From the NCBI GenBank assembly GCA_902499925.1, contig GCA_902499925.1_4130.1: a stretch of DNA of 64,000 bases. One strand, written 5' to 3'. This document shows positions 45,031-62,928 of this stretch, piece after piece. A program made the position numbers and the translations under genes. The notes beneath the pieces were generated by a model. It had not been told where the DNA came from. It saw nothing but the letters and a program-made list of their open reading frames with translations, and made no database searches. Positions within the stretch are counted from its first letter, which is position 1, and the number at the start of each line of letters is the position of its first letter. This stretch comes from Escherichia coli. GTDB lineage: Bacteria; Pseudomonadota; Gammaproteobacteria; Enterobacterales; Enterobacteriaceae.

Positions 45031-46581
45031 TTAAACTATTTCGGTAGCTCCATACTTAAAGTAAATTTCCTTAATCATTTCAAGATTATGGATGCTTGTA
45101 GTTTCAGACCAACCATCCTCCATCAATTCACGTTCAATAATACCTTTCGTATTATGGATTTTAATATTTTCAGTTTGAAACAGTTTCTTACATTCAGTTT
45201 CGGCAGCAATACAATCAACTGGATTTTCAAATTTAAAAGAGCTAATACGTTTTATATCATAATAACATTTTAAGTTTTGTTCATATTCACGACGACCGAG
45301 GATTGTTTCAATTCCATATTTTAGCCCAATATATTCACCTGCATTACATATACCACTAATATATGCAATTTTTTGATTGCGATGTGCCTTACGAGGATTG
45401 CCACATCCACGCAAATGTATAGATGGTGTTTGCCAGAATTCATCACCACTTTCTGGATCAATAATACACACATTAGTACGGGCATCAATATACTCTACTT
45501 TACTGTAATCATATTGTTCATCGTGAATTTCGTTAGCCCTGTTGATAAATTCATCAATTGACATTTTATTTTTCAGGCCAGTTGATATATTAGCACGATC
45601 ATTATTACCACATCCCATCAAATGTGATGATGGTGTTTGCCAGAATTCACCATATACTGGATCTATAATACATACCTTAGTACTGTTGTTTACGTATACG
45701 ACCTTACTATAATCATACAGATTATCATGCACCAAATTGGCCTTCTCGATAAATTCATCAAGTGTTAAGCGTTTACTCTGTGCCGTTTTTTCAAAACCAC
45801 GGATTGGGTTTCCATGACCTTTCCAATGGTAGATTGGTTCTTGCCAGAATTCACCATATACTGGATCTACAATACATACCTTAGTCCATGCACCAGTATA
45901 CTCCACTTTACTGTAGTCATATAAATGACCATGTACTGCACGAGAACGTTCAATAAAAACTTCGTTGGTGAATGTTTTATTTACTGAAGTTCCTATACGC
46001 CCACGTTCCATGTTACCATGCTTGGATTTTAAATGGTCATATGGCGTTTGCCAGAATTCACCATACACTGGATCAATAATGCATACTGGAGTTTTACTAT
46101 TAACATATTCTACGTTTGAATAATCGAACGTATTTCCAAAACGTTCGATAGCTTCAGCTATAAATGTTTCAGTTGTTTTTGATTTAAGTTTTTTACCATT
46201 TTCAATGGCACGTTGTGGGCTACCTGCACCTTTTAAATGGGAGCTGGGTTCTTGCCAGAATTCACCATACACTGGATCAATAATACATACCTTAGTGCTA
46301 TTATTTTTATAAACAACTTTACTATAATCATAGAGGTTGTTATGAACTTTTTCTGCTCGTTCTATAAACGTTTGGGTGGTTAATTTGCCAACACCTGAAC
46401 GATATGGATTCCCCTGACCGCGAATGTGATGTGACGGAGTTTGCCAGAATTCACCATACACCGGATCAATAATGCATACTGGTTCTTTAGCTTTTACATA
46501 CACTGCTTTTTCGTAATTATAGAGATCACCATGTACATTTCGTGCAGCAATTAAAAAAGTTTCTTGGTCGGTAACACGCAT
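45031..46581 (-). CDS. tandem-repeat protein (516 aa): six ~67-aa repeats plus C-terminal GIY-YIG-like region
   Basis: Repeat unit TxxFIERAxxVHxNLYDYSKVxY...KVCIIDPVYGEFWQxPxxHLxGxGNPxR six times; C-terminal AYISGICNAGEYIGLKYG...GRREYE...FKFE resembles GIY-YIG spacing; RBS AGGGATAAAGAAA. Confidence 0.65.
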   Translation of the reverse strand: MRVTDQETFLIAARNVHGDLYNYEKAVYVKAKEPVCIIDPVYGEFWQTPSHHIRGQGNPYRSGVGKLTTQTFIERAEKVHNNLYDYSKVVYKNNSTKVCIIDPVYGEFWQEPSSHLKGAGSPQRAIENGKKLKSKTTETFIAEAIERFGNTFDYSNVEYVNSKTPVCIIDPVYGEFWQTPYDHLKSKHGNMERGRIGTSVNKTFTNEVFIERSRAVHGHLYDYSKVEYTGAWTKVCIVDPVYGEFWQEPIYHWKGHGNPIRGFEKTAQSKRLTLDEFIEKANLVHDNLYDYSKVVYVNNSTKVCIIDPVYGEFWQTPSSHLMGCGNNDRANISTGLKNKMSIDEFINRANEIHDEQYDYSKVEYIDARTNVCIIDPESGDEFWQTPSIHLRGCGNPRKAHRNQKIAYISGICNAGEYIGLKYGIETILGRREYEQNLKCYYDIKRISSFKFENPVDCIAAETECKKLFQTENIKIHNTKGIIERELMEDGWSETTSIHNLEMIKEIYFKYGATEIV

Positions 46582-46614
46582 TTTCTTTATCCCTAGTACG
46601 TTTCATTTCGATAG

Positions 46615-46650
46615 AGCTATAATAGCAAAAGGGCTGACCGAAGTCAACTC
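46615..46650 (-). promoter_or_regulatory. terminator-promoter cassette (degenerate copy)
   Basis: Hairpin GAGTTGAC-ttcg-GTCAGCCC with one mismatch, then TATTAT. Confidence 0.4.
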
Positions 46651-46859
46651 TTTGATATGATAATATAATCATTCCATAAATTATATATATTGTTTTCAAC
46701 ACAATCATCATCGCTTAATTCTATAATTGACGAGATAAGTTCTGATAAGGTTTGTGTGTTCAAAACCGTATCACGATGTCTCAACCACCATTTCATGGTG
46801 AGTGTTCGGATTTTGTACGGATTGTTTGAAAACTTGTATCTAGAAGTGTCAAGTATCAT
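46644..46859 (-). CDS. hypothetical protein (71 aa)
   Basis: Minus ORF directly downstream of denV; ends at the cassette hairpin. Confidence 0.45.
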   Translation of the reverse strand: MILDTSRYKFSNNPYKIRTLTMKWWLRHRDTVLNTQTLSELISSIIELSDDDCVENNIYNLWNDYIIISKS

Positions 46860-46872
46860 TTTTAATCTCTAT

Positions 46873-47310
46873 TTACTTAATCATCTCGGTATAGTACTCA
46901 GGTAACTCAACATCAGTAAATTTATACCACTTAGGCTTCATTTGGAGCTTCTCAATCAAGCGTTCACGAGACATTTTAATCTCTGAATCAGATGGTACAT
47001 AGTCCTGGCAAAACTCCGCAGGGAAGCCGCTAATGTCGTTTAATTCAATGTTTTGAATCTTCATACCACGACGCAAACATTCGTTAACAATTTCAATATG
47101 ACGCTTCTGTAAGTACAATAACTTGTTGTAGAAGAATGTTACATGACCTGAACCTAACAGGTAAGTACTGTTAATTTTGAAATCACGTACACGCTTACGT
47201 GCTTGAACATGTTTTTGTACAGCACCAAATACACGTGGGAGTTCACGATATTCAGCCATCAGATGTTGGTCAGCAAGTTCTTTAACGTGTACTAAGTTAA
47301 TGCGTGTCAT
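46873..47310 (-). CDS. denV: endonuclease V, pyrimidine-dimer DNA glycosylase/AP lyase (145 aa)
   Basis: Colinear with T4 DenV as I recall it: [31 protein letters not shown]...KRVRDFKI...GHVTFFY.KL; RBS GAGGATGAATAC. Confidence 0.85.
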
Positions 47311-47338
47311 GTATTCATCCTCTCGTTTCGATGAAATG

Positions 47339-47376
47339 ATTATAACAAAAAGGGCTGACCGAAGTCAACCCTTTGT
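47339..47376 (-). promoter_or_regulatory. terminator-promoter cassette
   Basis: Minus strand reads GGGTTGAC-ttcg-GTCAGCCC, T-run, TGtTATAAT (extended -10). Confidence 0.55.
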
Positions 47377-47377
47377 T

Positions 47378-47800
47378 TTAATCATCGCCAAAATCATAAT
47401 GGTTCTCGTAAAAACAATCCTGACAGTAGTCACCATCATCACCGAATGCAGTTTCATTACGATATACTTCACTTTCTGGTATTTGTTTACCACAATCATC
47501 ACATGTACATAGTTTCATAAATTCCTCATTAATCAACAATGCACCCAACTTCACAATCTCATACCCATCCAGATAGCCATAGGAACACTCAGGTGTTTCA
47601 TAAGTTGAACCATCATGGATACCTTGGCATTGGCTTTTGGAACGTTCAAGCAATCGTTGCAGTACTGATACGTCATCAAGAACGTAATACAAGTTAGCAT
47701 ATGGGTCCGTCACAATACAGTACTTAAACATGCCAAATGTATCAATCGATTTTTCAACCTTAGCAAATTGTTTCTTTTCTTTATTATACAATGCGTACAT
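47378..47800 (-). CDS. hypothetical protein with C-terminal Cys cluster (141 aa)
   Basis: Track ORF 47378..47866 trimmed to MYALYNKEKK, which starts 1 nt after the stop of 47802..48173; CTCDDCGKQ...YCQDCF. Confidence 0.5.
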   Translation of the reverse strand: MYALYNKEKKQFAKVEKSIDTFGMFKYCIVTDPYANLYYVLDDVSVLQRLLERSKSQCQGIHDGSTYETPECSYGYLDGYEIVKLGALLINEEFMKLCTCDDCGKQIPESEVYRNETAFGDDGDYCQDCFYENHYDFGDD

Positions 47801-47801
47801 A

Positions 47802-48173
47802 TTAATCTCCATAATCAAGTTTAACCAACTTACCACACAGATACCCAAAGTTTTCTGGCTTCGCATCTGAATAGAAGAAGTCAGTACTTAACTCTGAATT
47901 CAATGCTAAAGCACACAACTCCACCCAAAATAAACCCCTATGTTGTACTGGCTTACAACGTTTCTGTACAGTTACTAGTCCAGTACATGATGACCACAAA
48001 GTAGGACAGATACCAGTATCACTACGCTTGGAGTACTGCATCCACGAACGTTCATTGAGGTTAGCTATCATCCCTGTTAAGAATAGCTTCCAACTTTTAA
48101 AGGTTGGAATCTTGATAGCATATTCCCCAATGAGTATGACAGTTCGTGTTGCACCTTTCAAATCTATATTCAT
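47802..48173 (-). CDS. protein kinase-like mini-protein (123 aa)
   Basis: AIK lysine motif, catalytic-loop-like DAKPEN and DYG 16 residues later; C-terminus ends at DYGD, matching 1446..2030. Confidence 0.5.
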   Translation of the reverse strand: MNIDLKGATRTVILIGEYAIKIPTFKSWKLFLTGMIANLNERSWMQYSKRSDTGICPTLWSSCTGLVTVQKRCKPVQHRGLFWVELCALALNSELSTDFFYSDAKPENFGYLCGKLVKLDYGD

Positions 48174-48182
48174 ATTTTTTAA

Positions 48183-48434
48183 TTAGAAGAACACAAACCA
48201 AGTCCAGAATAAATTCCACACTACAAATAAAAACATAGTGGTTTTATGTACAATATCAGCAGTACTGGTCCATCCTCCACCGTGTCCTATTCCATTTATG
48301 AATAGAACTAAGAACAAGATACCATTTACTACAATAGTACATAGTAAGTACACAAACACATTCCATGCAAGTTCAGGGGATACTAACGTAAATGGTAAAA
48401 CAATTAGTAGTATTAGAACTAATAAAATTTTCAT
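48183..48434 (-). CDS. small membrane protein (83 aa)
   Basis: Three hydrophobic segments; RBS GAGGCGATAA. Confidence 0.55.
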   Translation of the reverse strand: MKILLVLILLIVLPFTLVSPELAWNVFVYLLCTIVVNGILFLVLFINGIGHGGGWTSTADIVHKTTMFLFVVWNLFWTWFVFF

Positions 48435-48462
48435 TTATCGCCTCACTTAATTAACGTGACAA

Positions 48463-48639
48463 TTAGTACGAATCAGATTCCCAGTACTCGATTGCTTCTT
48501 TCAGCAATTCTTTAGCACGTTGTTTTGCAATGCGAGCGGGTAACAGATATGTGTACATTAACTGACGCTTCACTTCATTCAGTGAAAGCTGTTCATGGTA
48601 CAGTGCATCCATCAGTCGATTACGAGTACGTAGTTTCAT
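48463..48639 (-). CDS. hypothetical small protein (58 aa)
   Basis: Untracked ORF MKLRTRNRLMDALYHEQLSL...; RBS AAGGATAACTTAT. Confidence 0.4.
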   Translation of the reverse strand: MKLRTRNRLMDALYHEQLSLNEVKRQLMYTYLLPARIAKQRAKELLKEAIEYWESDSY

Positions 48640-48650
48640 ATAAGTTATCC

Positions 48651-49205
48651 TTATTTCAAAGAATCATAGTAAGCAGTGTCAAAGATTGGAGTCATAATAA
48701 CATAGTCAATACGGTCAATGTAAGTTGAACTCCACATTTCTGGTTTGTCATAAAATTGACGCTCGCGTTCATTCATACGAGTCAGTACTTCTTCCAATTT
48801 ACTACGTGAAGCCATCAATGTATTACGCGATCCATAAGTGAAGTACTCAGTCCATTGATATTCATATTCAGTACTGATAGATTGAATAGTACCATCTTTG
48901 AAATGAGCTAAGGCATATCCTTTCTCTACAAAGTTATCAGGTGGAAGAACACTATCTGGATTAGTTTTCAATGCTTTGGTTAACTTTTCTTTAATTTCAG
49001 TTAACGTGCATACTGAACGAATGTTCTTCAGGTTTGATACTTGAAAATCACTGTACTTTCCAAAGAAAAATACACGCCAATCTTTAGGTTCATTATCAGA
49101 TACGGTAATATTCGGATGATGGGCGAGTAAACGAAGAAGGCCAGCTTTGTGACCGTTAATGTAGATCTCATGGATGTGGTTAGCAGTTTTCTTAAAAGTA
49201 ATCAT
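48651..49205 (-). CDS. hypothetical protein (184 aa)
   Basis: RBS GAGGAATTGTC; own promoter TTGACA-17-TATAAT and 5'-UTR hairpin 49223-49243. Confidence 0.6.
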   Translation of the reverse strand: MITFKKTANHIHEIYINGHKAGLLRLLAHHPNITVSDNEPKDWRVFFFGKYSDFQVSNLKNIRSVCTLTEIKEKLTKALKTNPDSVLPPDNFVEKGYALAHFKDGTIQSISTEYEYQWTEYFTYGSRNTLMASRSKLEEVLTRMNERERQFYDKPEMWSSTYIDRIDYVIMTPIFDTAYYDSLK

Positions 49206-49222
49206 GACAATTCCTCGATTGT

Positions 49223-49243
49223 GGGGATGAGAAGTTCATCCCC
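49223..49243 (-). promoter_or_regulatory. 5'-UTR stem-loop (family member)
   Basis: GGGGATGA-gaagt-TCATCCCC inverted repeat between promoter and RBS. Confidence 0.5.
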
Positions 49244-49281
49244 TTGATAAACATTATACAGTACTGAATGAGTTTGTCAAC

Positions 49282-49662
49282 TCAAAATAAATTCATTTCA
49301 TGTGCGTATTGTGGTTCAAGATGCGATAAGTTTTTGAAGCTTTCTTTCAACTCAGCATCATCTACATACACCGTGCCTGGTACATTCCCCATAGTGAAAC
49401 CTACCCACACAGTCATGTCACCAGTCCCTAAGCGTGGCATTGATAGCGAACCATCAGGTGAAACATCAAACGCTACACTGAAGTCATCAGTAACAACGTC
49501 TGAACCATTTTCGAGAATAATACATCCACTATCTTTAAGCTTCTGAATGTGGATAGCAGCCTCTACAGCACGTTTGAAGTTATAGTAAGACTCTTTATCC
49601 TCAAACATTGATTGTTTAATCAGACGCTTGTTTAGCTCGGTTACTTTGTGCATTTGACGCAT
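49282..49662 (-). CDS. hypothetical protein (126 aa)
   Basis: RBS GGGAGATGGATAAGTA; coupled to upstream gene. Confidence 0.55.
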   Translation of the reverse strand: MRQMHKVTELNKRLIKQSMFEDKESYYNFKRAVEAAIHIQKLKDSGCIILENGSDVVTDDFSVAFDVSPDGSLSMPRLGTGDMTVWVGFTMGNVPGTVYVDDAELKESFKNLSHLEPQYAHEMNLF

Positions 49663-49919
49663 TACTTATCCATCTCCCACAGTTGTAGAATTTCATAAGA
49701 GCCTGGTGGTGCTGGATTCCTGATCTCAGGGAATTGAGTACTTTTAGGATTACCACCAGCATTAAATTCGTCAAGTAATGATTCCAGTTCGCGACGATCC
49801 TGAACAACATAAACACAATCACCTGAACCTTCTTCGAGAATCATTTCACTTCCTGCACAATCCCATACTGTTGAGATACATAGAATCTCTTTTGTATTTT
49901 TATTACGCAATGCAAACAT
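49662..49919 (-). CDS. hypothetical protein (85 aa)
   Basis: RBS AGGGGGTTGCT. Confidence 0.55.
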   Translation of the reverse strand: MFALRNKNTKEILCISTVWDCAGSEMILEEGSGDCVYVVQDRRELESLLDEFNAGGNPKSTQFPEIRNPAPPGSYEILQLWEMDK

Positions 49920-49928
49920 AGCAACCCC

Positions 49929-50297
49929 CTATCGATTTGGCATTTTATCTCGTAATTTCACAAGATAATCAATCACGGTACATCCTGAAATAAAGGTAAT
50001 ATAAGTACTGAAAAATCCTACCAGAATAAAGGCAACAAGCGTACTCCCATTTGGTTCTTCAGCTTTAATACCAATGATACCATCAGATGCAGTGAAAAAT
50101 GTAGACATAAACGTTAGACAGATGTACATCACTAATAAGAATTCATGTTCTAATGACGGATAAAAACGATCAAAAAGTTTATAAAATTTAAAGTACAGTA
50201 GGAGTATACCAACAAAGGCATAGAAAGTAAACAGTGTTGTTATGATATATGATATTAAATTTAAATTATACATCTCAACGCTCCGGTAGATTATCAC
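49929..50297 (-). CDS. small multi-pass membrane protein, family member (122 aa)
   Basis: Same family as 41332-43771; C-terminus ...LRDKMPNR. Confidence 0.6.
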   Translation of the reverse strand: MIIYRSVEMYNLNLISYIITTLFTFYAFVGILLLYFKFYKLFDRFYPSLEHEFLLVMYICLTFMSTFFTASDGIIGIKAEEPNGSTLVAFILVGFFSTYITFISGCTVIDYLVKLRDKMPNR

Positions 50298-50616
50298 GTA
50301 ATGTTTTGATTCGATTATACAATTTCATTGCTACATTTCCAAATAAACCAAAACCCATTACTAAAATGTATGCGATGATCATAGTAATAATTACAATAGT
50401 ACCTAGACTGTAATGTACTGCACTGATACCCATTATTGTTTCTACAATGATGTGAGCAACAGAAATCACCAAAAGTACTACTACAATTGGATGATTTGGA
50501 TACATTCGGTTAAACAATGTTTTGTACTTAAAGAAGTACAGTACTCCACCAAATAAGAAGTACACAATGTAGATTGATGCAACGGCATAAGCAAACGCAT
50601 TAGTGTAAAAAATCAT
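50275..50616 (-). CDS. small multi-pass membrane protein, family member (113 aa)
   Basis: Track start is TTG; ATG at Met3 has RBS AAGGATTGATA; C-terminus ...LRDNLPER. Confidence 0.6.
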   Translation of the reverse strand: MIFYTNAFAYAVASIYIVYFLFGGVLYFFKYKTLFNRMYPNHPIVVVLLVISVAHIIVETIMGISAVHYSLGTIVIITMIIAYILVMGFGLFGNVAMKLYNRIKTLRDNLPER

Positions 50617-50625
50617 TATCAATCC

Positions 50626-50964
50626 TTACTTTTCAGGGATTTTATTACGCCACTCATCGATGCGATGAAGCAGTTTAAAGAGCAAAAATATCGGAACTGT
50701 AGCTATCATAGTAGCAATTGTTAGTAATGTCAACATCGATACGAGATTTAATTCGTCCGTACTATATCCACATACCAGTACTTCAATTATCCCCCACGTA
50801 CATGCACTGAACATCAAAAATGAAATTGGTGCATCGTAGTATATGCGTTGATACAAGGTCGTGTATCGGAAGAATGCAATAATGTAACAAAACATGTAAT
50901 ACACCCAAATTAACGATACTACATAAAATGATACCTTATTAATTAATTCAAAATGTTGTTCCAT
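50626..50964 (-). CDS. small multi-pass membrane protein, family member (112 aa)
   Basis: RBS AGGGGTAAAAA; C-terminus ...WRNKIPEK. Confidence 0.6.
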   Translation of the reverse strand: MEQHFELINKVSFYVVSLIWVYYMFCYIIAFFRYTTLYQRIYYDAPISFLMFSACTWGIIEVLVCGYSTDELNLVSMLTLLTIATMIATVPIFLLFKLLHRIDEWRNKIPEK

Positions 50965-50973
50965 TTTTTACCC

Positions 50974-51249
50974 CTACATATATTCTAAGAATAATGTATT
51001 AGCTTCGTCTATGTTCTTAAGATAATACATGTAATACAGATTTGGTTGTCCGTCTTTTGAACTCAAATCAAAGTACTTTAAACTATGCACCGTCATGACA
51101 AAAACAAATAATGACTTAAAACCAATCTCACCGTACTTAATAAACAGTTCATCTAAATGAATGTAACTCTTAGTTTCAGATAATTCCTTCACATCAGCTT
51201 CAATTTCTTGTAAGCGAAGTTTACCGATTAAGTTTTCAAATGAACGCAT
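50974..51249 (-). CDS. hypothetical protein (91 aa)
   Basis: Track ORF trimmed to Met10. Confidence 0.45.
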   Translation of the reverse strand: MRSFENLIGKLRLQEIEADVKELSETKSYIHLDELFIKYGEIGFKSLFVFVMTVHSLKYFDLSSKDGQPNLYYMYYLKNIDEANTLFLEYM

Positions 51250-51260
51250 GATGTTGTTCC

Positions 51261-51674
51261 TTATGCTGGTACACAATTTTTTATAATGAATACACGTTTC
51301 ATGAATGAACTTTCATATACGTACTTCAGTTTACCATTTTCACGCATACGATGAAACACATCTTTACCGCTAGTACTCCATGTTGAACCAGTCTCTGCAT
51401 CAACATTGTTCATTACACCAGATGTTACGTTCACCCCGTACTTGAAGCTAAAGGTACTACCTTCTTCTACCAGAGGGATTGGTGTACTACGTTCATGTTC
51501 CAGTACAAGTTTACTGCCGATGATGTTGTACGAAGTTAGCTTGCATTTTAAAACACCCATCTCTTGTGCAGTTGGGTAATTCTTCTCAAACAAATCAGAT
51601 ACTTCATTTGCATAACAAACTGAACTAATCATAAGAAGTAATGAACTGATAGAACGGAAAATAACTTTTAACAT
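51261..51674 (-). CDS. secreted protein with signal peptide (137 aa)
   Basis: N-terminus MLKVIFRSISSLLLMISSVCYA; RBS GGAGGCAAAC; cassette upstream. Confidence 0.6.
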   Translation of the reverse strand: MLKVIFRSISSLLLMISSVCYANEVSDLFEKNYPTAQEMGVLKCKLTSYNIIGSKLVLEHERSTPIPLVEEGSTFSFKYGVNVTSGVMNNVDAETGSTWSTSGKDVFHRMRENGKLKYVYESSFMKRVFIIKNCVPA

Positions 51675-51700
51675 GTTTGCCTCCAGTAGTTGATGAAATG

Positions 51701-51740
51701 ATTATAGCAAAAAGGGCCGACCGAAGTCAACCCTTTTCTT
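51701..51740 (-). promoter_or_regulatory. terminator-promoter cassette
   Basis: GGGTTGAC-ttcg-GTCGGCCC, T-run, TATAAT. Confidence 0.55.
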
Positions 51741-52115
51741 TTATATTTTACATGTCATGTCTGGTTTTGGCTTTTCATTCTTTGGCTTTTCAAATGGATT
51801 TGGCTTAGGGGACTTTTTATCTTTATCATCTTTAGCTTTCTTTTTGTTTTCTTTTTTATCCGATTTGTCAGCTTTGTCTTTCTTATCTTTTGAATCTTTG
51901 TCAGCTTTAGATTGTGGTTCCTCACATACAGCAGCTTTTGGCTCTGGCATATCACATGAGTTATCCACAGGTTTAATGAACTCTTTACAGTTGTAGAAGT
52001 ATAAACTTTCATTGGTAGTAAGATTGTGGAATCTAAAGGTATTTTCACCATTAGTATATACTTTCTTAGTACTCTCAATATCATTACACATTGCAACTGT
52101 GTCACCGGAATTCAT
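51741..52115 (-). CDS. protein with Cys-containing N-domain and Lys/Asp-rich tail (124 aa)
   Basis: RBS AGGTATCGAGC; overlaps stop of upstream gene; preferred over alternative-frame ORF 51755..52105. Confidence 0.5.
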   Translation of the reverse strand: MNSGDTVAMCNDIESTKKVYTNGENTFRFHNLTTNESLYFYNCKEFIKPVDNSCDMPEPKAAVCEEPQSKADKDSKDKKDKADKSDKKENKKKAKDDKDKKSPKPNPFEKPKNEKPKPDMTCKI

Positions 52116-52353
52116 GCTCGATACCTATTACATCCGACTTACGTTCAGATAGTATTCCAGACGTATATCGATCTTTGTTATCAAATGCATTGAACCCTAT
52201 AGTTTTATTATTGTCATGTACCAATCCTCTAGTGTAAGACTTGGTATAGAACTCACCGTTTCTAAACTCCTGTCTAGCAATGGAGCACTGGTATTCAGTA
52301 CTATAAACTATATCAGTAAACAATACAAGTGAAAATAAAACATATTTAAACAT
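52102..52353 (-). CDS. secreted small protein (83 aa)
   Basis: Signal-peptide-like MFKYVLFSLVLFTDIVYS; RBS AAGAGGTAATGCA. Confidence 0.55.
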   Translation of the reverse strand: MFKYVLFSLVLFTDIVYSTEYQCSIARQEFRNGEFYTKSYTRGLVHDNNKTIGFNAFDNKDRYTSGILSERKSDVIGIEHEFR

Positions 52354-52379
52354 TGCATTACCTCTTATAAAACCCTCTA

Positions 52380-52417
52380 CAATATTTACAAAAAAAGGTT
52401 GACCGAAGTCAACCTTT
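52380..52417 (-). promoter_or_regulatory. terminator-promoter cassette
   Basis: Perfect hairpin AAGGTTGAC-cgaa-GTCAACCTT, T-run, TAAATA. Confidence 0.5.
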
Positions 52418-52424
52418 TAAATGT

Positions 52425-53918
52425 TTATTTTTTATCCTTTCCAACACCACGGTCGTACTCTTTGAATGAGTTATCAAGTGTAGTTAGAGCATACTCATAT
52501 GCTTCTGGTGATTCAATGTCAACATCATCTGCACCATTTACTAAATCAGCCCAAGCCTTTTGAAGTTTACGAGCATTGTTACCAACATTATCTTTAATCC
52601 AACTAATATTTTTGTTGATACTTTTACTATCAGCACCTGCTTTTTTACCAATCTCGGATATCCACATCATTAACTTTTGAAGTTCATGAATTGATTTATC
52701 AGTCATTTCAAGATGTTCTTCTTCCATACCGTCAGTATCAGATGAACCAACGTCAATTCCATGTTTAGCTAATAGTTTACCAAGTTCAAAGAATGCAGCT
52801 TCAGCAGGGAAGTCATAACCTTTCTCTTTGTAGTTATTCCATGCACTATCAAACTCGTCAACAAAACGGTTAGCATAATCTGGATTTTTAACTAATGCTT
52901 TATATACTGCCATTGCATGTTCAAAACCTTCTTTATCTGACCCAAACTCTTCCATCTCAGGACGATGAATGTATCCATCCATATCAACGGTATCAGGTAG
53001 ATCTTCTTGCTCAGGCTCAACATCTTTCTGTTCAACTGCACCTTCTTCATCTGCACGCTTTAGATAACCATCTGGTGTTACCTTCTCACCATGTTCGGCT
53101 TCATACTTTTTCATAGTGTTGAATGCAGCATCCATAGCTGTTACGAAGCGACTTTTCTCACCTTGTACATAAGATTTAAGTGCACTGTTAACTGCATCTG
53201 ATACGAGCTTAACCTTATCGTCTTTACCTTCTAAACGGTTTTCAAGTTTAGCCAGTACATTCTTGACTTGCTGGGCATTAGCACGGTCTGCTTTACCAAT
53301 ACTATCAAAAGTTTTAAGAATACCATCAAGACTTGCTTCACCCTGTTCAGGTTCTTTGGAATCTTCTTTGTGTGTACCTTCAAGTGCACGCATGATAGTA
53401 CTGAATACTTCAGTAGGTTCAGTGCTCTTATTACCTTTCATTGCATCAAGTACAGCTTGTGCTTTACCTTTGAGTTCTTCTTTAGGAACTGCCTGTAGTG
53501 CTTTGACAATACCCTGAATCAACTGTGGTTTGTTAGCAAAGATCTTACCTAAGTTATCAGATAACTCTTTAACAGGGTTAGCTGCTTTAGGAGCTTCTGG
53601 TTTTGGTTCTTCTTTAGGAACTGCTTGTTCTTTCTCAGCACGTTCCATATCAGCAAGGCGTTGTTTCTGTGTTGCGTTAAGAAGACCTAATGAGTTAACA
53701 TAACGTAGCTTTTCTAGCTCAGTCATGTTCTCAGTACTCTTAACTGCACCTGCTTCTGCGTTTGCCTTACCAGCTAAACCTGTCCCTTGATTACGTGAAC
53801 CACGTGACCCCTGTCCTGCTTGATAACTATTTTTGCGACGATTTCGGTCGGCCCATTTATCCGAGTGTTGTACTAGTCCACCATTACGATGTTTCATATC
53901 CCCATTATCTTGTGGCAT
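52425..53918 (-). CDS. Lys/Glu-rich protein (497 aa), function unknown
   Basis: RBS AGAGGATTAAAAAT; N-terminal region shares Y(V/L)(N/D)SLGLL motif with 55282..55665. Confidence 0.65.
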   Translation of the reverse strand: MPQDNGDMKHRNGGLVQHSDKWADRNRRKNSYQAGQGSRGSRNQGTGLAGKANAEAGAVKSTENMTELEKLRYVNSLGLLNATQKQRLADMERAEKEQAVPKEEPKPEAPKAANPVKELSDNLGKIFANKPQLIQGIVKALQAVPKEELKGKAQAVLDAMKGNKSTEPTEVFSTIMRALEGTHKEDSKEPEQGEASLDGILKTFDSIGKADRANAQQVKNVLAKLENRLEGKDDKVKLVSDAVNSALKSYVQGEKSRFVTAMDAAFNTMKKYEAEHGEKVTPDGYLKRADEEGAVEQKDVEPEQEDLPDTVDMDGYIHRPEMEEFGSDKEGFEHAMAVYKALVKNPDYANRFVDEFDSAWNNYKEKGYDFPAEAAFFELGKLLAKHGIDVGSSDTDGMEEEHLEMTDKSIHELQKLMMWISEIGKKAGADSKSINKNISWIKDNVGNNARKLQKAWADLVNGADDVDIESPEAYEYALTTLDNSFKEYDRGVGKDKK

Positions 53919-53922
53919 ATTT

Positions 53923-54465
53923 TTAATCCTCTATCCATGTTTGATTGTATAAAATACGACGTATTGTTTTTTTACATACACGGTATTTATTACAATTTTC
54001 TCGTGCATATTCTATCACATCATTATAATTATCATTATAATCTTTTCTTATTTCTCTTACAATTTCCCATGTCAACACAGCAGCACCACGATTAGTTGTT
54101 GCGTTACCATGTGAATAAGAATATAGTACGTTTTCAGATGCTGTGTTCCATTCCAAATTCAAATAGTGATTGTTACTTCTATTACAATCTTTATGGTTTA
54201 TGTGAACAACTTTTTTCTTTGTTCTACTCGCCCACTGTAACTGTTTCTGTTTGGGTGGTGGTAAAAATGCTTCAGCTACTAGTCGATGAATCGCCTTTCT
54301 ATTTTTCACAGAATTGCGATACAAATCGACCTTCACATACCCATCTTTATTTTTAAATCCACAACTTATATATCCAGTTTGTTCGTTTCTTACTCTTCCA
54401 TGATCAGAAATTGAATAGTCATAATCAGGAATTAATTTCCAACGTTCCATGTTTATTTCTTCCAT
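53923..54465 (-). CDS. HNH homing endonuclease (180 aa)
   Basis: WKLIPDYDYSISDHGRVRN then HRLVAEAF and VHINHKDCNRSNNHYLNLEWNTASEN, the HNH_3 family pattern; start may be Met6. Confidence 0.8.
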   Translation of the reverse strand: MEEINMERWKLIPDYDYSISDHGRVRNEQTGYISCGFKNKDGYVKVDLYRNSVKNRKAIHRLVAEAFLPPPKQKQLQWASRTKKKVVHINHKDCNRSNNHYLNLEWNTASENVLYSYSHGNATTNRGAAVLTWEIVREIRKDYNDNYNDVIEYARENCNKYRVCKKTIRRILYNQTWIED

Positions 54466-54498
54466 TATATATAAAGGTTGACCGAAGTCAACCCTATT
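54465..54498 (-). promoter_or_regulatory. terminator-promoter cassette
   Basis: GGGTTGAC-ttcg-GTCAACC, T-run, TATATAAT. Confidence 0.5.
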
Positions 54499-54515
54499 TT
54501 CACTGTACTATACCA

Positions 54516-54812
54516 TTAGTAGTTACAGTCAGCTTTCGCTGTGAATGTTTTACTTTCTCCGCGTTGTGTGGTGATTCGTCCGAGTAAAGTAGTTTTGTCA
54601 ATAGTCATTGTAGTTAGTACTGGAACATTACCTTCAAAGTCAATAGCTTTGAAATTGTAGGTGGTTTCATTCTCCACTACACTTGGACCAAAGAGTTCAT
54701 ATGTGTTGATTTCAAGTGTGTCACCATCCGAACGCATCAGTGTACAGTCCAGATTAGGAGTAGCCAGTACAGGGAAAGCCAAACACATCATCATTGCAAT
54801 AATTAATTTCAT
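54516..54812 (-). CDS. secreted small protein (98 aa)
   Basis: Signal peptide MKLIIAMMMCLAFPVLA; RBS AGGAGAAGTGAA. Confidence 0.6.
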   Translation of the reverse strand: MKLIIAMMMCLAFPVLATPNLDCTLMRSDGDTLEINTYELFGPSVVENETTYNFKAIDFEGNVPVLTTMTIDKTTLLGRITTQRGESKTFTAKADCNY

Positions 54813-55072
54813 TTCACTTCTCCTGTTTTTTTCTTAGGATCAACCAATGACCAAATGAAGAATCCGAGAATTACAAGTACCCACAGAATCATGATAAAGA
54901 AAGCAAACAGTACAATAGTATTTGTCAAAAAGAAATACAATAGAATGTTCGACCCAATACTACATACAATCAATGCAGCTTCATGTTTAACAACACGAAT
55001 GGCTGTAATGAGTGCGGGAAGAAATCCGACAAATAACAGTACTAACGCATATAGTGATAATGTTTCAGCCAT
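54809..55072 (-). CDS. small membrane protein (87 aa)
   Basis: Two or three hydrophobic helices; RBS AAGGGATATC. Confidence 0.55.
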   Translation of the reverse strand: MAETLSLYALVLLFVGFLPALITAIRVVKHEAALIVCSIGSNILLYFFLTNTIVLFAFFIMILWVLVILGFFIWSLVDPKKKTGEVK

Positions 55073-55080
55073 GATATCCC

Positions 55081-55194
55081 TTATTTGGTTTGTTCAACAC
55101 TAGGTGTATTGATATAGGTGTCAATTGAATAACATACTGTACCAACTACAACAGCAGCGATTAGGGCAGCGATGATGAATTTAGTACCTTGCAT
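55081..55194 (-). CDS. small membrane peptide (37 aa)
   Basis: Untracked ORF MQGTKFIIAALIAAVVVGTVCY...; RBS GAGGTATTAAATT. Confidence 0.35.
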   Translation of the reverse strand: MQGTKFIIAALIAAVVVGTVCYSIDTYINTPSVEQTK

Positions 55195-55241
55195 AATTTA
55201 ATACCTCACGTTGTTTGTATTTTGTATCACTTGATGAAAAT

Positions 55242-55280
55242 ATTATACGACAAAGGGCTGACCGAAGTCAACCCCTTTTA
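55242..55280 (-). promoter_or_regulatory. terminator-promoter cassette
   Basis: GGGGTTGAC-ttcg-GTCAGCCC, T-run, TATAAT. Confidence 0.55.
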
Positions 55281-55281
55281 A

Positions 55282-55665
55282 TTATTTTTTAAACTTATGT
55301 TTTTCGCCTTCAATAGAGTTCACGATGTCATCATGAATCTTGCGAAGGTTATGAGTTTTCTTTAGTGCTTCATGTAGTGCACGGAATGCTGCGTGTACTG
55401 TTGCCTTGAAGTGCTCTTTAGGAGTCACTTTAAGTTTCTCAATGATATCACGTACATAAATTGGATGATCTTCAAATACACGATTCAATTCATGGCCTAG
55501 TGATTCTAGACTGAAAGCTTTTTCACGTGAAGGACGATCATGTGCAAGACTTTGGTCAGGCTTTAGTAGACCTAGTGAATCAAGATACTTATGCTTATGT
55601 GCATTATCAATTCCAGAAATATCCACATCATGCGATGGATCTTTCTTATTCCATTTATCAACCAT
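55282..55665 (-). CDS. hypothetical protein (127 aa); N-terminal motif shared with 52425..53918
   Basis: RBS AAGGAGTATGAA. Confidence 0.6.
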   Translation of the reverse strand: MVDKWNKKDPSHDVDISGIDNAHKHKYLDSLGLLKPDQSLAHDRPSREKAFSLESLGHELNRVFEDHPIYVRDIIEKLKVTPKEHFKATVHAAFRALHEALKKTHNLRKIHDDIVNSIEGEKHKFKK

Positions 55666-55776
55666 TTCATACTCCTTAAAGAGATAAATTACTTTAATAT
55701 TTATACTTCATGTGCTGTTTATTTCTACAGACACTTAAGATTATATCACATATGAAATGGTTGTTCCAAAGTCAAA

Positions 55777-56220
55777 TCAGTACTGCTTAAGTTCTGAACT
55801 GAAGATAAAGGAATCCATATCTTCTAGTGTTAACTTCAAGTCCGGTGTGTACTTTAATATCACACATTCAGGTTTCTTAATGGCAGCTTGATAGGCAGCA
55901 ATTGCCAACTGTTGAAGCTGCTCTGGTGTGTAGTTCATGCGTTCTGCATTGAATACGATGTTCTTAATATCACCACCAGGTAGCTTCTCAAACTCACGCA
56001 TAACAGCAGCCATCACATCATCAGATGTATTCTTATAAGCCCAATGAGGTAGTTGCATAACGTCATAAATCTCGCCATTGTCGTTCATAAGAGAGATCCA
56101 TTTTTTACAGTCCGATGAACTAAACAGACGACCTTTAATAGCAATGTTCTCTACCAAATTAACAAAGGCAAATATGTCTTGCTCATTTAGTTCAATGCTA
56201 TTAACGTTAATCCAACCCAT
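55777..56220 (-). CDS. hypothetical protein (147 aa)
   Basis: RBS GGAGATGAAGT. Confidence 0.6.
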   Translation of the reverse strand: MGWINVNSIELNEQDIFAFVNLVENIAIKGRLFSSSDCKKWISLMNDNGEIYDVMQLPHWAYKNTSDDVMAAVMREFEKLPGGDIKNIVFNAERMNYTPEQLQQLAIAAYQAAIKKPECVILKYTPDLKLTLEDMDSFIFSSELKQY

Positions 56221-56233
56221 ACTTCATCTCCAG

Positions 56234-56806
56234 TTATAAATCACGAACGACATTCATTAAACACAATTTGGGCTTTATCGCATTCAAAACCCATATGCAT
56301 TCTTTGTAAGTTGCTATTATAGCATCTAAATGCTCAGTTACAATGCTTTCTTGAAAATATTCTTCTTCATTGAGCTTTGCTAAATTAGTCACATCACATG
56401 TAGGTACTATAGTTCTGGATTGTACACCCATTCCATTATTGATATTGGTAAAATGTAAAAATTTGTACTTCACCACACCGTTATCTACACTTATGATACA
56501 TGTCAAATGTTCCAACTCAGTTAGTTCGGTATTACAAGTGACATGGATGAATCCAGCATTATAGGCTCTATAATCATCTACTAATATCTCAAAATCATTA
56601 CGTTCAAATATAAGTGAAATGAGTTTGTCTTGTGGTTTAACCTTCTGAAATTTTAACGAATTTACGTATGATACTTTAATCTTAGATGAAATTATCTTTT
56701 TACTAAGTGCAGTTAATTCTTCTTTAGCCTTAAAAGTTAAAGTTATAGGTCTAAATCTAGAACTTTTGTTCTTCTTTGATACTTTGAACTTACCTTTTCT
56801 ATTCAT
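56234..56806 (-). CDS. hypothetical protein (190 aa)
   Basis: Minus ORF; basic N-terminus. Confidence 0.55.
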   Translation of the reverse strand: MNRKGKFKVSKKNKSSRFRPITLTFKAKEELTALSKKIISSKIKVSYVNSLKFQKVKPQDKLISLIFERNDFEILVDDYRAYNAGFIHVTCNTELTELEHLTCIISVDNGVVKYKFLHFTNINNGMGVQSRTIVPTCDVTNLAKLNEEEYFQESIVTEHLDAIIATYKECIWVLNAIKPKLCLMNVVRDL

Positions 56807-56860
56807 TAATTAAACCCCACATAAAGTAAAAGGGATGGCATATTACCAACCCTATATCTT

Positions 56861-57097
56861 TTATTTTTTAATAGATTCATAAAGCAGAAACAACCAAATA
56901 AACATTGATGAACAAACTACTACTGGGATTAATGTAAATTCAGTAAAGAATAAAAGTATCCCATAAGTTAGTATGCAACATAAGTTTACGTACATAATTG
57001 CTTCTGCATTTTTATTTTTCATTTTATATGCAATGAATGTTGGTGACCACATTACCAAAAATGCAAACAACGCACATATGATGATTATAGTTTCCAT
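56861..57097 (-). CDS. small membrane protein (78 aa)
   Basis: RBS GGAGGTGTAAT. Confidence 0.55.
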   Translation of the reverse strand: METIIIICALFAFLVMWSPTFIAYKMKNKNAEAIMYVNLCCILTYGILLFFTEFTLIPVVVCSSMFIWLFLLYESIKK

Positions 57098-57167
57098 ATT
57101 ACACCTCCGTAAAATAATGTTCTGTACTGCTATTATTTACAGAGAATATCTGAAAAATTGATCTAGA

Positions 57168-57392
57168 TCAATTTTTAGTCACTTTACAATTTGAATCTTT
57201 TTTGTACTGAACAATCACATTGTTCTTAAGGAAGATGATGGTCCCATAGGAACCTTGGGCTGCAACTTCAACAATATGGTTCTTATATGTTTCAGTATAT
57301 CCTTCCATCTCGTTGATACACACTACATGATACTTTGGTTTAGCACATACAACAGTACTCAAGAATAGCAGTACTAGTACTAGATATTTCAT
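57168..57392 (-). CDS. secreted small protein (74 aa)
   Basis: Signal peptide MKYLVLVLLFLSTVVCA; RBS AAGGTAATAAA. Confidence 0.55.
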   Translation of the reverse strand: MKYLVLVLLFLSTVVCAKPKYHVVCINEMEGYTETYKNHIVEVAAQGSYGTIIFLKNNVIVQYKKDSNCKVTKN

Positions 57393-57442
57393 TTTATTAC
57401 CTTATAAACAAGAACAGGAATCCTTTTACGGATTCCTATAAT

Positions 57443-57736
57443 TTAGTCCTTTAATGTACCATTGTGTAAACGATTATACACATCATTGCGACGCAACTCA
57501 ACAATATCTTCAGCGTACTTCATTGTAAACGCCCATGCTTTTGGATGCACATTAAGCTTCATACGAATGCGATTCTTCATCAATTCACCGCTTAGGCGAA
57601 CAAACTCATGAACACCACGACTTCCGTACTCTGAAATCAAATCATTGATGTACATGTTGCGAAGGGTTTCGTCTGTACATTCTTTAACCATTTCTACGTC
57701 TGCCACGATGCTTGCATTTACTGAAGTACTGATCAT
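57443..57736 (-). CDS. hypothetical protein (97 aa)
   Basis: RBS AAGGTAACTTAAA. Confidence 0.6.
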   Translation of the reverse strand: MISTSVNASIVADVEMVKECTDETLRNMYINDLISEYGSRGVHEFVRLSGELMKNRIRMKLNVHPKAWAFTMKYAEDIVELRRNDVYNRLHNGTLKD

Positions 57737-57747
57737 TTTAAGTTACC

Positions 57748-58014
57748 TTATTTGAATTGGACTGTAATTTTATCACCTTCAACTACGAACTTACAGTCGT
57801 AGCGACGGGCCATATCCATGTACATATGCTCAGAATACCACGGAACATCAATCTCAGGATGCTCTGCGTATTGTAGCACTTCACGGTCACCAACAGTAGT
57901 GATGACAAAAGGAATGTTCATCTCTCGCAAAAACAACTCAGCACCTGGTGAACGATTGACAAACTCAGTGTCGTTACGCAAAGTAAAACCATTGTATTGT
58001 AATTTAAGCTTCAT
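57748..58014 (-). CDS. hypothetical protein (88 aa)
   Basis: RBS AGAGGATAATC. Confidence 0.6.
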   Translation of the reverse strand: MKLKLQYNGFTLRNDTEFVNRSPGAELFLREMNIPFVITTVGDREVLQYAEHPEIDVPWYSEHMYMDMARRYDCKFVVEGDKITVQFK

Positions 58015-58028
58015 GATTATCCTCTAAG

Positions 58029-58373
58029 TTAATACCATTCTTTTAAACCATCAAGTTCGGCTATGTGAGTAATTATAACACAGATAACACTCAGGTCAAG
58101 CATTATTTGCTCATAATTTAATTTTATTCTATCATCATTGTATGCTCGAAAAACAACATCAAAGTCAAAGTAGTTATCGTTTTCATCATTCATTGGAATG
58201 ATTCTATATCTACGTCTACCATCATCATTGAATACAGTCAAACACTGTTTGAATTTCTTCATTAACTGTGTAGTCAATGCATTGTAATATGCAACATCAT
58301 ATTGTGTACAACGTGGGTCATTGGGTAGATAAAACGATACAAATTTTTTTAATTCTATTTGAGTCTTATCCAT
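58029..58373 (-). CDS. hypothetical protein (114 aa)
   Basis: Track ORF trimmed to Met5 (RBS GAGG within upstream gene end). Confidence 0.55.
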   Translation of the reverse strand: MDKTQIELKKFVSFYLPNDPRCTQYDVAYYNALTTQLMKKFKQCLTVFNDDGRRRYRIIPMNDENDNYFDFDVVFRAYNDDRIKLNYEQIMLDLSVICVIITHIAELDGLKEWY

Positions 58374-58806
58374 ATACAGCCTCATGTATTACTCTTTTAC
58401 TTTGGCGGTACTCATCCTTTGCTTCTCTCACTGACATGATACGAACCAGATTGGCACGACCACAATAGTACTGAACCTGACTACGACCAATGTCAACATG
58501 ATTATCAGGAACTTCATATACTGATACAGCGAACCCTGCACGATGTAATTTACCCAAGTCCATAGTAAAGAACTTAAACAAATCATTCAAACTCTGACAG
58601 CCAAATGCCCAGCCACGTTTGATTGAATAGATTCCATCTTCAGTTGGTTCTGGTTGGAATTGCGAAGGCGTGGTCATGCACAAACGGTCAAATCCATTTT
58701 TAGTACTGTATCGTGAAGAGTACCGTGCGAACGGCCCTACTGTTTTTGCTGGATCTAAGTTAGGTTCAATATAACTGAATTTAAGTTCAAAACGATATAC
58801 GTACAT
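58366..58806 (-). CDS. hypothetical protein (146 aa)
   Basis: RBS GGGGATTTTAATT; cassette upstream. Confidence 0.6.
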   Translation of the reverse strand: MYVYRFELKFSYIEPNLDPAKTVGPFARYSSRYSTKNGFDRLCMTTPSQFQPEPTEDGIYSIKRGWAFGCQSLNDLFKFFTMDLGKLHRAGFAVSVYEVPDNHVDIGRSQVQYYCGRANLVRIMSVREAKDEYRQSKRVIHEAVYG

Positions 58807-58835
58807 AATTAAAATCCCCAGTAGTTGATGAAATA

Positions 58836-58872
58836 ATTATAACAAAAAAGGTTGACCGAAGTCAACCTTTAT
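58836..58872 (-). promoter_or_regulatory. terminator-promoter cassette
   Basis: Perfect hairpin AGGTTGAC-ttcg-GTCAACCT, T-run, TGtTATAAT. Confidence 0.55.
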
Positions 58873-59053
58873 TTTGAAGTTCTTGAACTAATTGTCGTAC
58901 TTCTTTGATGTTACGACACTGCTTTACAGTGAAGTAATCATACTTACGACCATAGGTTCTTGGGTCATCACCTTCCATATACTGCTGCACATCAAAGATT
59001 TGTAAGTAGGGATGCTGCATAACACGAATGTTATCACATTGATAAATCAACAT
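58862..59053 (-). CDS. hypothetical protein (63 aa)
   Basis: Track start is GTG; trimmed to Met11 with RBS GAGGACTAAACAT. Confidence 0.45.
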   Translation of the reverse strand: MLIYQCDNIRVMQHPYLQIFDVQQYMEGDDPRTYGRKYDYFTVKQCRNIKEVRQLVQELQNKG

Positions 59054-59057
59054 ATGT

Positions 59058-59408
59058 TTAGTCCTCATATTTACACAAGCCACCGAATGTTGCCTGTTTT
59101 GCTGCCTTACGCATCATCACAAGTTTAACATACTGTTCGCCATTACTATCTTCATATACATCAACTTGAAGAAATGCAAGCATATTGGGATCAGTATCGT
59201 TCGAGTACTGCGTAAAACTAATGTCACCTACGGTATGTTCTTTAACAAAATTATACACTTCACCGTCGATATAAACGATAGTATGGTCATCGCTATCACC
59301 TTGGTAAATGTGTTTAATATCACCTTCAGTACAGACTAGTCCAGGTAATGGTTCTGCATAAGACATACCACATATAATCATACAAACAAAAAACAAAATT
59401 ACTTTCAT
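59058..59408 (-). CDS. secreted protein (116 aa)
   Basis: Signal peptide MKVILFFVCMIICGMSYA; RBS AAAGGAAACAAATC. Confidence 0.6.
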   Translation of the reverse strand: MKVILFFVCMIICGMSYAEPLPGLVCTEGDIKHIYQGDSDDHTIVYIDGEVYNFVKEHTVGDISFTQYSNDTDPNMLAFLQVDVYEDSNGEQYVKLVMMRKAAKQATFGGLCKYED

Positions 59409-59788
59409 GATTTGTTTCCTTTGGATAAAATGGATTTCTTCACTTTGTACTGCTTGTAGTTATTATACCAAACATCGATTACATAAATCAAGTACCAAAG
59501 TGATGGATATAATGATAGACCAATAAAAACTGAAAAAATACTTGTATTAATAAAACCAATACAGTGCAGTGTAAATGCAACGATTAGAATACCAATCGTA
59601 ATCATACTAGCTGAATATGGTACACTATCAGATGCGAACCATGAATCAACCTTACTAATTAAAGTATACTTTCCAGTACTAACCGCATAAACAATTGCTA
59701 CTATACCAAATAATGCCATTGAAATAGTTATTACTGAGTTAATAAGAATCGGAGTAATTAATACATAAAGCATTACATCGTTTATCAT
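59405..59788 (-). CDS. membrane protein (127 aa)
   Basis: Several hydrophobic segments; RBS AAGGTATAACAA. Confidence 0.6.
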   Translation of the reverse strand: MINDVMLYVLITPILINSVITISMALFGIVAIVYAVSTGKYTLISKVDSWFASDSVPYSASMITIGILIVAFTLHCIGFINTSIFSVFIGLSLYPSLWYLIYVIDVWYNNYKQYKVKKSILSKGNKS

Positions 59789-59798
59789 TTGTTATACC

Positions 59799-60164
59799 TT
59801 AAAGTTCACAATGAATATTCAATTTATCAATATCCTGATCGCGTTTGTTCGACGAATCTTGATAAATGACTATGTAAATATCCCCATCCTTTGTCTTGGG
59901 GTCCACTATCAATATTACATTTGCTATTATACCAGCATCTGATTTATATGTCGATACCTTTTTATTCCCAATCAAACTCTCGGCCCTGAAACGGTAAACC
60001 TCATTATCTACGACAATATTGTTTCCATTTTGTGGGTCATTAGAAAGTACATGCCATGTTCCATCGTTTCCCATACAATCAAGGTAAGCAGGTACGGCTG
60101 TACTGAACCTTGAATAAAGCATGAATACTACAAACACCATTATCATTCTTATATATTTTTTCAT
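59799..60164 (-). CDS. secreted protein (121 aa)
   Basis: Trimmed to Met11; signal peptide MKKYIRMIMVFVVFMLYSRFSTA; RBS AGAGGTTATA. Confidence 0.55.
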   Translation of the reverse strand: MKKYIRMIMVFVVFMLYSRFSTAVPAYLDCMGNDGTWHVLSNDPQNGNNIVVDNEVYRFRAESLIGNKKVSTYKSDAGIIANVILIVDPKTKDGDIYIVIYQDSSNKRDQDIDKLNIHCEL

Positions 60165-60242
60165 TATAACCTCTAACGAGCAATACTTCTGCACATATTA
60201 TTTGTACAGAAGTATTTAATACTATTAGAGACTTTTTGAACG

Positions 60243-60569: not shown

Positions 60570-60627
60570 GTTTTATATCCTCAAGTTTAAGTGTTAAGTT
60601 TCAGACTACAAGAACCATTATACAGTA

Positions 60628-61523: not shown

Positions 61524-61559
61524 AGTATCCTCAGTTGCAGTTGTTTTTTGATGTAGTTA

Positions 61560-61983: not shown

Positions 61984-61986
61984 TTG

Positions 61987-62920: not shown

Positions 62921-62928
62921 GGGAATTC

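Follow-up and report, generated by a model that had tools for sequence, protein, structure and literature searches.

Can one well-conserved repair gene tell us what kind of phage carries it? The question is raised by an open reading frame for a homologue of T4 endonuclease V (DenV, the product of denV) in a 64,000-nucleotide stretch of DNA (hereafter the window), from which an earlier note had concluded that the replicon is T4-like and that the rest of the window is T4-like accessory content. Our analyses point elsewhere. With a probability of roughly 92%, we explain the locus jointly as the denV of a RaK2-like jumbo coliphage of the genus Asteriusvirus, encoding what should be a functional enzyme, probably expressed from a sigma-70 promoter embedded in a hairpin cassette, and most likely exchanged horizontally with T-even phages. 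The features on which this reading rests are collected in Table 1.

Table 1. Features of the window and their closest matches (positions are those of the window).
Feature	Positions	Strand	Remarks
Window part, best match fEgEco12	1-25000		coverage 93%, identity 96.9%
RCC1-repeat array	23391..41295	plus	14 mutually similar genes, 264-449 aa; 18 kb; 24-43% mutual identity
ORF interrupting the array	34336..34971	minus	overlaps two array genes
ORF interrupting the array	39443..40093	minus	
Window part, best match EC.P1	39001-64000		coverage 88%, identity 98.4%
Run of small genes	41332..64000	minus	~60 genes, mostly 60-190 aa
ORF with T4 nrdC.10 match	43839..44612	minus	257 aa; 40% over 241 aa, E 2.3e-59
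Window part, matches to many Escherichia phages (348-386 kb)	45000-49500		partial coverage, identity ~92-99%
516-aa protein gene	45031..46581	minus	six tandem repeats of ~65-70 aa plus distinct C-terminal domain
Second cassette copy, GTTGACTTCGGTCAGCCCTTTTGCTATTAT	46619..46648	minus	closes denV-orf71 unit, precedes 516-aa gene
71-aa ORF	46644..46859	minus	starts 13 nt past denV stop
denV CDS	46873..47310	minus	ATG start, 145 aa, coordinates include stop codon; T4 denV match 60% over 136 aa, E 2.8e-55
Shine-Dalgarno-like GAGAGGA	47318..47324	minus	ends 7 nt before ATG (47310..47308); read from sequence
Composite cassette upstream of denV, AAAGGGTTGACTTCGGTCAGCCCTTTTTGTTATAAT	47339..47374	minus	promoter and terminator scans
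-10 box TATAAT of denV cassette	47344..47339	minus	18 nt after -35, TG ahead
Hairpin of denV cassette	47374..47349	minus	11 pairs, GC stem, C(UUCG)G loop, then T run
-35 box TTGACT of denV cassette	47368..47363	minus	inside 5' arm of hairpin
Folded segment	47335..47385		51 nt
Segment absent from 121Q	47378..47528	minus	~150 nt
ORF upstream of denV containing that segment	47378..47866	minus	
ORF with T4 motB.2 match	58366..58806	minus	146 aa; 41% over 54 aa, E 2.5e-5
Cassette core starts	1427, 4696, 8711, 46647, 47368, 51730, 52412, 54491, 55271, 58865	minus	

The reading frame is a genuine DenV homologue, as judged by database comparisons in which the similarity lies far beyond chance. It occupies exactly the positions given in the earlier note, on the minus strand, which that note had left unstated. 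Its product matched the Pfam family PF03013 (Pyr_excise) with 57 bits (cut-off 23, E 2.5e-15) and PHROG 1183 ('endonuclease V N-glycosylase UV repair enzyme') with E 1.7e-57 over profile positions 1-137 of 139. A phmmer search of the PDB gave T4 endonuclease V as the best match (2END_A, E 9.3e-52), with residues 1-131 aligned to residues 1-131 without a gap, and with all chains searched the only PDB matches were entries for that enzyme (2END, 1ENI/J/K, 2FCC, 1VAS). Pairwise alignment with T4 DenV (from NC_000866), which the earlier note had proposed as a check, showed 61.8% identity across residues 1-131 and ~89% identity (31/35) across the N-terminal, catalytic 35 residues. The colinearity with T4 endonuclease V asserted in that note is thus confirmed, as is the assignment to the same length class (145 aa versus 138 aa, the difference being a longer C-terminal tail past residue 131), and the Pfam, PHROG and PDB matches bear out its view that DenV is the most secure functional call in the region. 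The N-terminal string quoted there does match the shared pattern, but it is one position short, as two variable residues follow L6 rather than one. An identical protein (100%) is encoded by phage WPEC3 (XTQ13324.1, CDS127), where it is annotated 'endonuclease V N-glycosylase UV repair enzyme'. The NCBIfam models for bacterial and archaeal annotation matched none of the DenV, 516-aa and nrdC.10-like proteins. We found no support for the view that the frame arose by chance or is a decayed pseudogene: the match is colinear and full-length (E 9e-52), the start codon, Shine-Dalgarno sequence and promoter are intact, and the protein is 88-100% conserved in > 30 Asteriusvirus genomes, so that this view can be given practically no credence.

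The residues on which catalysis depends are also in place. Enzymes of the DenV family form a Schiff base between the alpha-amino group of their N-terminal threonine and C1' of the damaged nucleotide, an active-site glutamate serving as both proton donor and acceptor, and then proceed to beta-elimination (PMC3285167); the Glu22 of that paper is Glu23 in gene numbering because the processed protein is numbered there. Window DenV is identical to the T4 enzyme at T2, R3, H16, E20, Y21, R22, E23, R26, R117, K121, W128, Y129 and K130, and has F at residue 131 where T4 DenV has Y. Absence of the N-terminal catalytic residues had been named in the earlier note as grounds for withdrawing the call; T2 and E23 are both present and, together with R3, E20 and R117, are invariant in 18 of the 18 aligned phage DenV proteins. 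In the 1VAS co-crystal work, contacts with DNA are reported for R3, R22, R26, R117 and K121 along with the C-terminal aromatic segment W128-Y129-K130-Y131. A single-sequence AlphaFold2 model of the 145-aa protein had a mean pLDDT of 40.2, which is too low to use, and we infer the small all-alpha fold of the family from the 62% identity to the solved T4 structure.

Taken with the T4 homology, these residues indicate that the window denV almost certainly encodes a functional pyrimidine-dimer DNA glycosylase/AP lyase of the T4 endonuclease V family. By analogy with that enzyme, the initiator Met would be removed, the freed alpha-amino group of Thr2 would attack C1' of the 5' pyrimidine of a cis-syn cyclobutane dimer, and the N-glycosyl bond would be cut to give a Schiff-base intermediate; a Glu23-assisted beta-elimination would then leave a nick 3' of the abasic site, with host enzymes finishing the short-patch repair. 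The kinked DNA would be held by the basic residues listed above (R3, R22, R26, R117, K121), and the phage would probably benefit in that its very large DNA is inactivated less by UV light.

A family member with a shifted role, acting mainly on lesions of other kinds (AP sites, formamidopyrimidines, other dimer isomers) or recruited by its clade-specific tail to a phage-specific process in place of classical UV repair, would account for two features of these proteins. All RaK2-like DenVs carry a tail motif past WYKF (V/F-P-x-Y-Y/F-x-x-M-L/I) that T4 lacks, and some DenVs bear an extra acidic extension: the 121Q protein (171 aa) and that of Xanthomonas phage XbC2 (at least 178 aa) share an acidic tail (...NES..D..E.QIK.EMNN) which is absent from the 145-aa window form. 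Yet none of the residues known to be important in T4 endonuclease V has been lost, 31 of the first 35 residues are identical, and the sequence gives no hint of another active site, all of which makes a change of role unlikely. As for the dimer-specific repair enzyme that we favour, DenV is already annotated in 121Q, RaK2, GAP32 and CBB and has been reported for the RaK2-like group, so our analysis adds nothing new about the enzyme itself; CBB_519, for one, is listed as a UV-repair endonuclease V (PMC5259590).

The nature of the replicon is another matter. Judged by its DNA matches, the window is part of a RaK2-like jumbo coliphage of the genus Asteriusvirus, with a genome of ~350 kb. Megablast searches with three parts of the window returned only jumbo coliphages of the 121Q/PBECO4 group (Table 1), and the closest genomes, those of 121Q, PBECO4, WPEC3, EC.P1 and fEgEco12, are 348-386 kb in length and share 92-99% DNA identity with it. 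In the NCBI taxonomy, 121Q and PBECO4 are placed in the genus Asteriusvirus with no family or order, outside both Straboviridae and Pantevenvirales, whereas T4 belongs to Pantevenvirales, Straboviridae, Tevenvirinae. The window is not WPEC3 itself. Identity between the two is 99.8-100% in denV and from 47377 to 43000; an HNH endonuclease gene of WPEC3, however, takes the place of ~150 nt of unrelated sequence in the window, and EC.P1 or fEgEco12 fit other parts of the window better.

Little in the window resembles T4. Its 387 stop-to-stop ORFs (>= 50 aa) were compared by tblastn with the whole T4 genome at E < 1e-4, and three of them matched: denV and the homologues of nrdC.10 and motB.2 (Table 1). 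No T4 core gene was found among the 387 ORFs at this threshold. The 257-aa nrdC.10 homologue belongs to PHROG 1250 (function unknown) and has a weak AAA-ATPase match (AAA_16), and the 146-aa ORF belongs to PHROG 1106, its likeness to T4 motB.2 being weak. At the nucleotide level, blastn of the window against T4 at E 1e-3 gave a sole match of 225 bp (72%), which lies inside denV. That gene goes unmentioned in the review where the T4 core (38 genes) and quasicore sets were defined (Petrov et al., 2010; PMC2993671), and because the review never names it we place denV outside its core and quasicore list. Of the 38 T4 core genes, 15 are missing from RaK2 (PMC3622015), and CBB is credited with 21 T4 core homologues; the three that are shown, gp23, gp25 and gp53, share 31-38% identity with the T4 proteins (PMC5259590).

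Could the window nonetheless derive from a T4-like (Straboviridae) phage, with DenV marking its neighbours as T4-like accessory content? The 62% identity between the two DenV proteins, the two further ORFs with T4 accessory homologues and the description of RaK2-like phages as distant relatives of the T4 superfamily (PMC5259590; PMC3622015) all lean that way. They are set against top DNA matches that are without exception Asteriusvirus jumbo phages of 348-386 kb, 384 of 387 ORFs with no T4 match at E < 1e-4 and no core gene, a taxonomy of the nearest genomes that differs from that of T4, and the occurrence of DenV in several unrelated phage families; we therefore consider a T4-like origin very improbable. 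The step from DenV to a T4-like replicon in the earlier note fails, the closest genomes being Asteriusvirus, 92-99% identical in DNA and non-Straboviridae; what is left of it is a remote superfamily tie and three accessory genes in common. The description of the remainder as T4-like accessory content fails for nearly the whole window, because just three of the 387 ORFs match T4 and none of these is a core gene.

What the window does contain is in keeping with the Asteriusvirus assignment in two respects, an array of RCC1-like genes and a long run of small early genes, both being content typical of the group. The RCC1-like genes are annotated 'regulator of chromosome condensation' in WPEC3 and fEgEco12. 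The array is interrupted by two minus-strand ORFs (Table 1). Beyond it the minus strand carries a nearly unbroken run of small genes, mostly of unknown function. Seven back-to-back genes at the start of this run (~104-123 aa, 41332..43771) were considered as possible paralogues, but blastp revealed no mutual similarity among them and the idea was rejected. ARAGORN found no tRNA genes in the window. A run of small genes of this kind is typical of the early region of jumbo phages, and denV lies within it.

The distribution of DenV across phages bears directly on its worth as a marker. A tblastn search found it in 1101 of 50,697 phage records. Outside the T-even phages it occurs in Kuttervirus Vi01 (Ackermannviridae), Rhizobium phage P10VF (Pootjesviridae) and Pseudoalteromonas phage H101 (Shandongvirus), as well as in all four of the RaK2-like genera sampled (Asteriusvirus, Alcyoneusvirus, Mimasvirus and Eneladusvirus). 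Given its presence in Ackermannviridae, Pootjesviridae, Shandongvirus and the RaK2-like genera, DenV is therefore no marker of a T4-like replicon. The lesson is that one well-conserved accessory repair gene is insufficient to name the replicon that carries it: taken as a shortcut, DenV would label a RaK2-like phage of ~350-385 kb T4-like and so skew the interpretation of ~130 neighbouring genes.

Annotated DenV orthologues in the group include RaK2 gp291, GAP32_498 and CBB_519 (~144-147 aa in these three phages), as well as 121Q gp217, WPEC3 CDS127 and the PBECO4 protein. Over the full query, identity to the window protein is 100% for WPEC3, 88-97% for Asteriusvirus, ~79% for Alcyoneusvirus and 66-70% for Mimasvirus and Eneladusvirus; over the 131-residue core it is 93% for 121Q, 81% for RaK2 and 69-71% for Mimasvirus and Eneladusvirus. 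In a neighbour-joining tree of 18 taxa (Kimura distance, 131 columns, 200 bootstraps), whose deep nodes are weak (51-64%), the RaK2-like proteins formed a clade with a bootstrap value of 90 and an internal order roughly that of the genera. The sister group of this clade was that of the Tevenvirinae (86), and the node joining the two had a support of 92; the DenV proteins of other Straboviridae fell outside the pair (Thanatos-1, 47-50%; Pseudotevenvirus CfP1, 38%; Schizotequatrovirus ValKK3, 33-35%).

From this topology, denV has most likely been passed down within the RaK2-like clade, with horizontal exchange, whether entry or exit, between that clade and enterobacterial T-even phages. RaK2-like DenV is nearer to that of the Tevenvirinae than are the DenV proteins of other Straboviridae, which therefore points to exchange. 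The same is suggested by two contrasts in identity: DenV identity is ~62% between two lineages that share 31-38% in the core proteins compared, those given for CBB, and yet it drops to ~35% between some members of a single family. If so, denV would be a clear case of repair-gene exchange between unrelated large coliphages.

Comparison with related genomes revealed that the surroundings of denV are mosaic. Gene order upstream of denV is common to the window, 121Q and WPEC3. On the downstream side, homology to 121Q-type genomes ends at 46894, ~7 codons before the denV stop, and the C-terminus of denV (46873..46894) is itself a mosaic junction. The ~2.2 kb that follow, comprising the 71-aa ORF and the 516-aa gene, are common to WPEC3 and CMSTMSU only. 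Just upstream of denV lies a segment that is absent from 121Q and in whose place WPEC3 has the HNH endonuclease gene (Table 1); the WPEC3 junction, at 47377/47378, is the edge of a hairpin cassette described below. Altogether, three of the ~5 homology breakpoints around denV, a small sample, lie at cassettes (47377/47378 against WPEC3; 47384 and 44677 against 121Q). The segment adds ~50 aa to the ORF upstream of denV, including two CxxC pairs (CTCDDCGK...DYCQDC) that resemble a zinc ribbon.

The 516-aa protein has a repeat motif of the form ...YDYSKV.Y....TKVCIIDPVYGEFWQ.P..HL.G.G.P. Matches to this protein came from the PHROG families 'endonuclease' and 'HNH endonuclease', and neither Pfam nor a PDB sequence search yielded a significant one. 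Among Asteriusvirus genomes it is found in WPEC3 and CMSTMSU only, with weaker homologues (31-34% identity) encoded in GAP32 and CBB ~0.7-1.7 kb upstream of denV. Because the gene is restricted to those two phages within Asteriusvirus, its distribution suggests a mobile, homing-endonuclease-like insertion adjoining denV.

The cassette upstream of denV combines a hairpin that a terminator scan scored as terminator-like with a promoter that scored 11/12 in the promoter scan, the -35 box lying within the hairpin and the -10 box beyond it (Table 1). The 51-nt segment spanning the cassette has a predicted folding energy of -23.7 kcal/mol, as against -6.5 ± 2.2 for shuffled sequences (z = -7.9). A scan of positions 44000..50000 at Rfam gathering thresholds gave no match. 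Matches to the promoter consensus indicate that denV is probably transcribed early from the predicted sigma-70 promoter of this cassette. The 71-aa ORF, which matched no family, has an identical counterpart (100%) in WPEC3 and none at the denV loci of 121Q, RaK2, GAP32 and CBB; by its position it is probably co-transcribed with denV, and the two would form a two-gene early unit that host sigma-70 RNA polymerase transcribes from the cassette promoter. In CBB, RpoD-like promoters are concentrated in the early region that holds CBB_519 (PMC5259590).

The cassette is not peculiar to denV. Its consensus, AAAGGGTTGACTTCGGTCAGCCCTTTTTGCTATAAT, comprises a terminator-like hairpin with a UUCG loop, a -35 box embedded in its stem and, 18 nt further on, a -10 box; the core, TTGACT(T/C)CGGTCA, has 10 copies in the window when one mismatch is allowed. 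Every copy is intergenic, lies on the minus strand and is followed by a TATAAT-like box. About 1.25 copies would be expected for the 13-mer with two mismatches allowed. In WPEC3, 121Q, RaK2 and CBB the cassette immediately precedes denV, and there are 3-4 copies per 8.4-kb locus in 121Q, RaK2, GAP32 and CBB. Its sequence is near-identical in 121Q, WPEC3, RaK2, GAP32 and CBB, and is conserved almost base for base among the Asteriusvirus, Alcyoneusvirus and Mimasvirus loci examined. In the T4 genome the core has one match only within one mismatch, and this is inside a coding region. No description of the cassette was found in the searchable literature on RaK2-like phages, coverage of which is incomplete, nor was a hairpin-promoter composite described in the available portion of the CBB paper (PMC5259590). 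For a phage group that is poorly annotated, the cassette offers a handle on early transcription units.

Composite elements of a similar kind are known from T4-type phages, where promoter-early stem-loop cassettes (PeSLs) have been proposed as agents of modular shuffling (Arbiol et al., 2010, PMC2839356; Comeau et al., 2014, PMC4122927). By analogy, the RaK2-like phages may have a composite hairpin-terminator/sigma-70-promoter cassette family of their own which acts as PeSLs do, supplying portable expression signals together with recombination sites that shuffle small early genes, and which could have carried denV and the nrdC.10-like and motB.2-like genes between T-even and jumbo phages of the same hosts. 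We put this forward tentatively, as a possibility that we ourselves rate as rather doubtful.

How, then, does the locus compare with the systems it recalls? Relative to T4, the enzyme is alike and its setting is not. Both proteins have Thr2 directly after the initiator Met, E23, the basic DNA-contact residues and W128-Y129-K130, and GC content is similar (38.1% versus 37.9%). In contrast, the window protein has a different tail past residue 131, of 14 residues and 7 longer than the T4 tail (YGKAIYA). T4 denV lies between vs.8 and ipII, whereas window denV lies between a PHROG-8563 ORF and the 71-aa ORF, in the genome of a jumbo phage of ~350-385 kb. The likeness of the cassette to PeSLs is one of architecture: both join a stem-loop, a predicted terminator in the cassette, to a near-consensus sigma-70 promoter, and both are present as many near-identical intergenic copies amid small variable genes. 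A few of the homology breakpoints around denV coincide with cassette copies, which may hint at a further likeness. The differences from PeSLs lie in the cassette sequence, in the placement of the -35 box inside an arm of the hairpin, and in the hosts of the element, which are RaK2-like jumbo phages.
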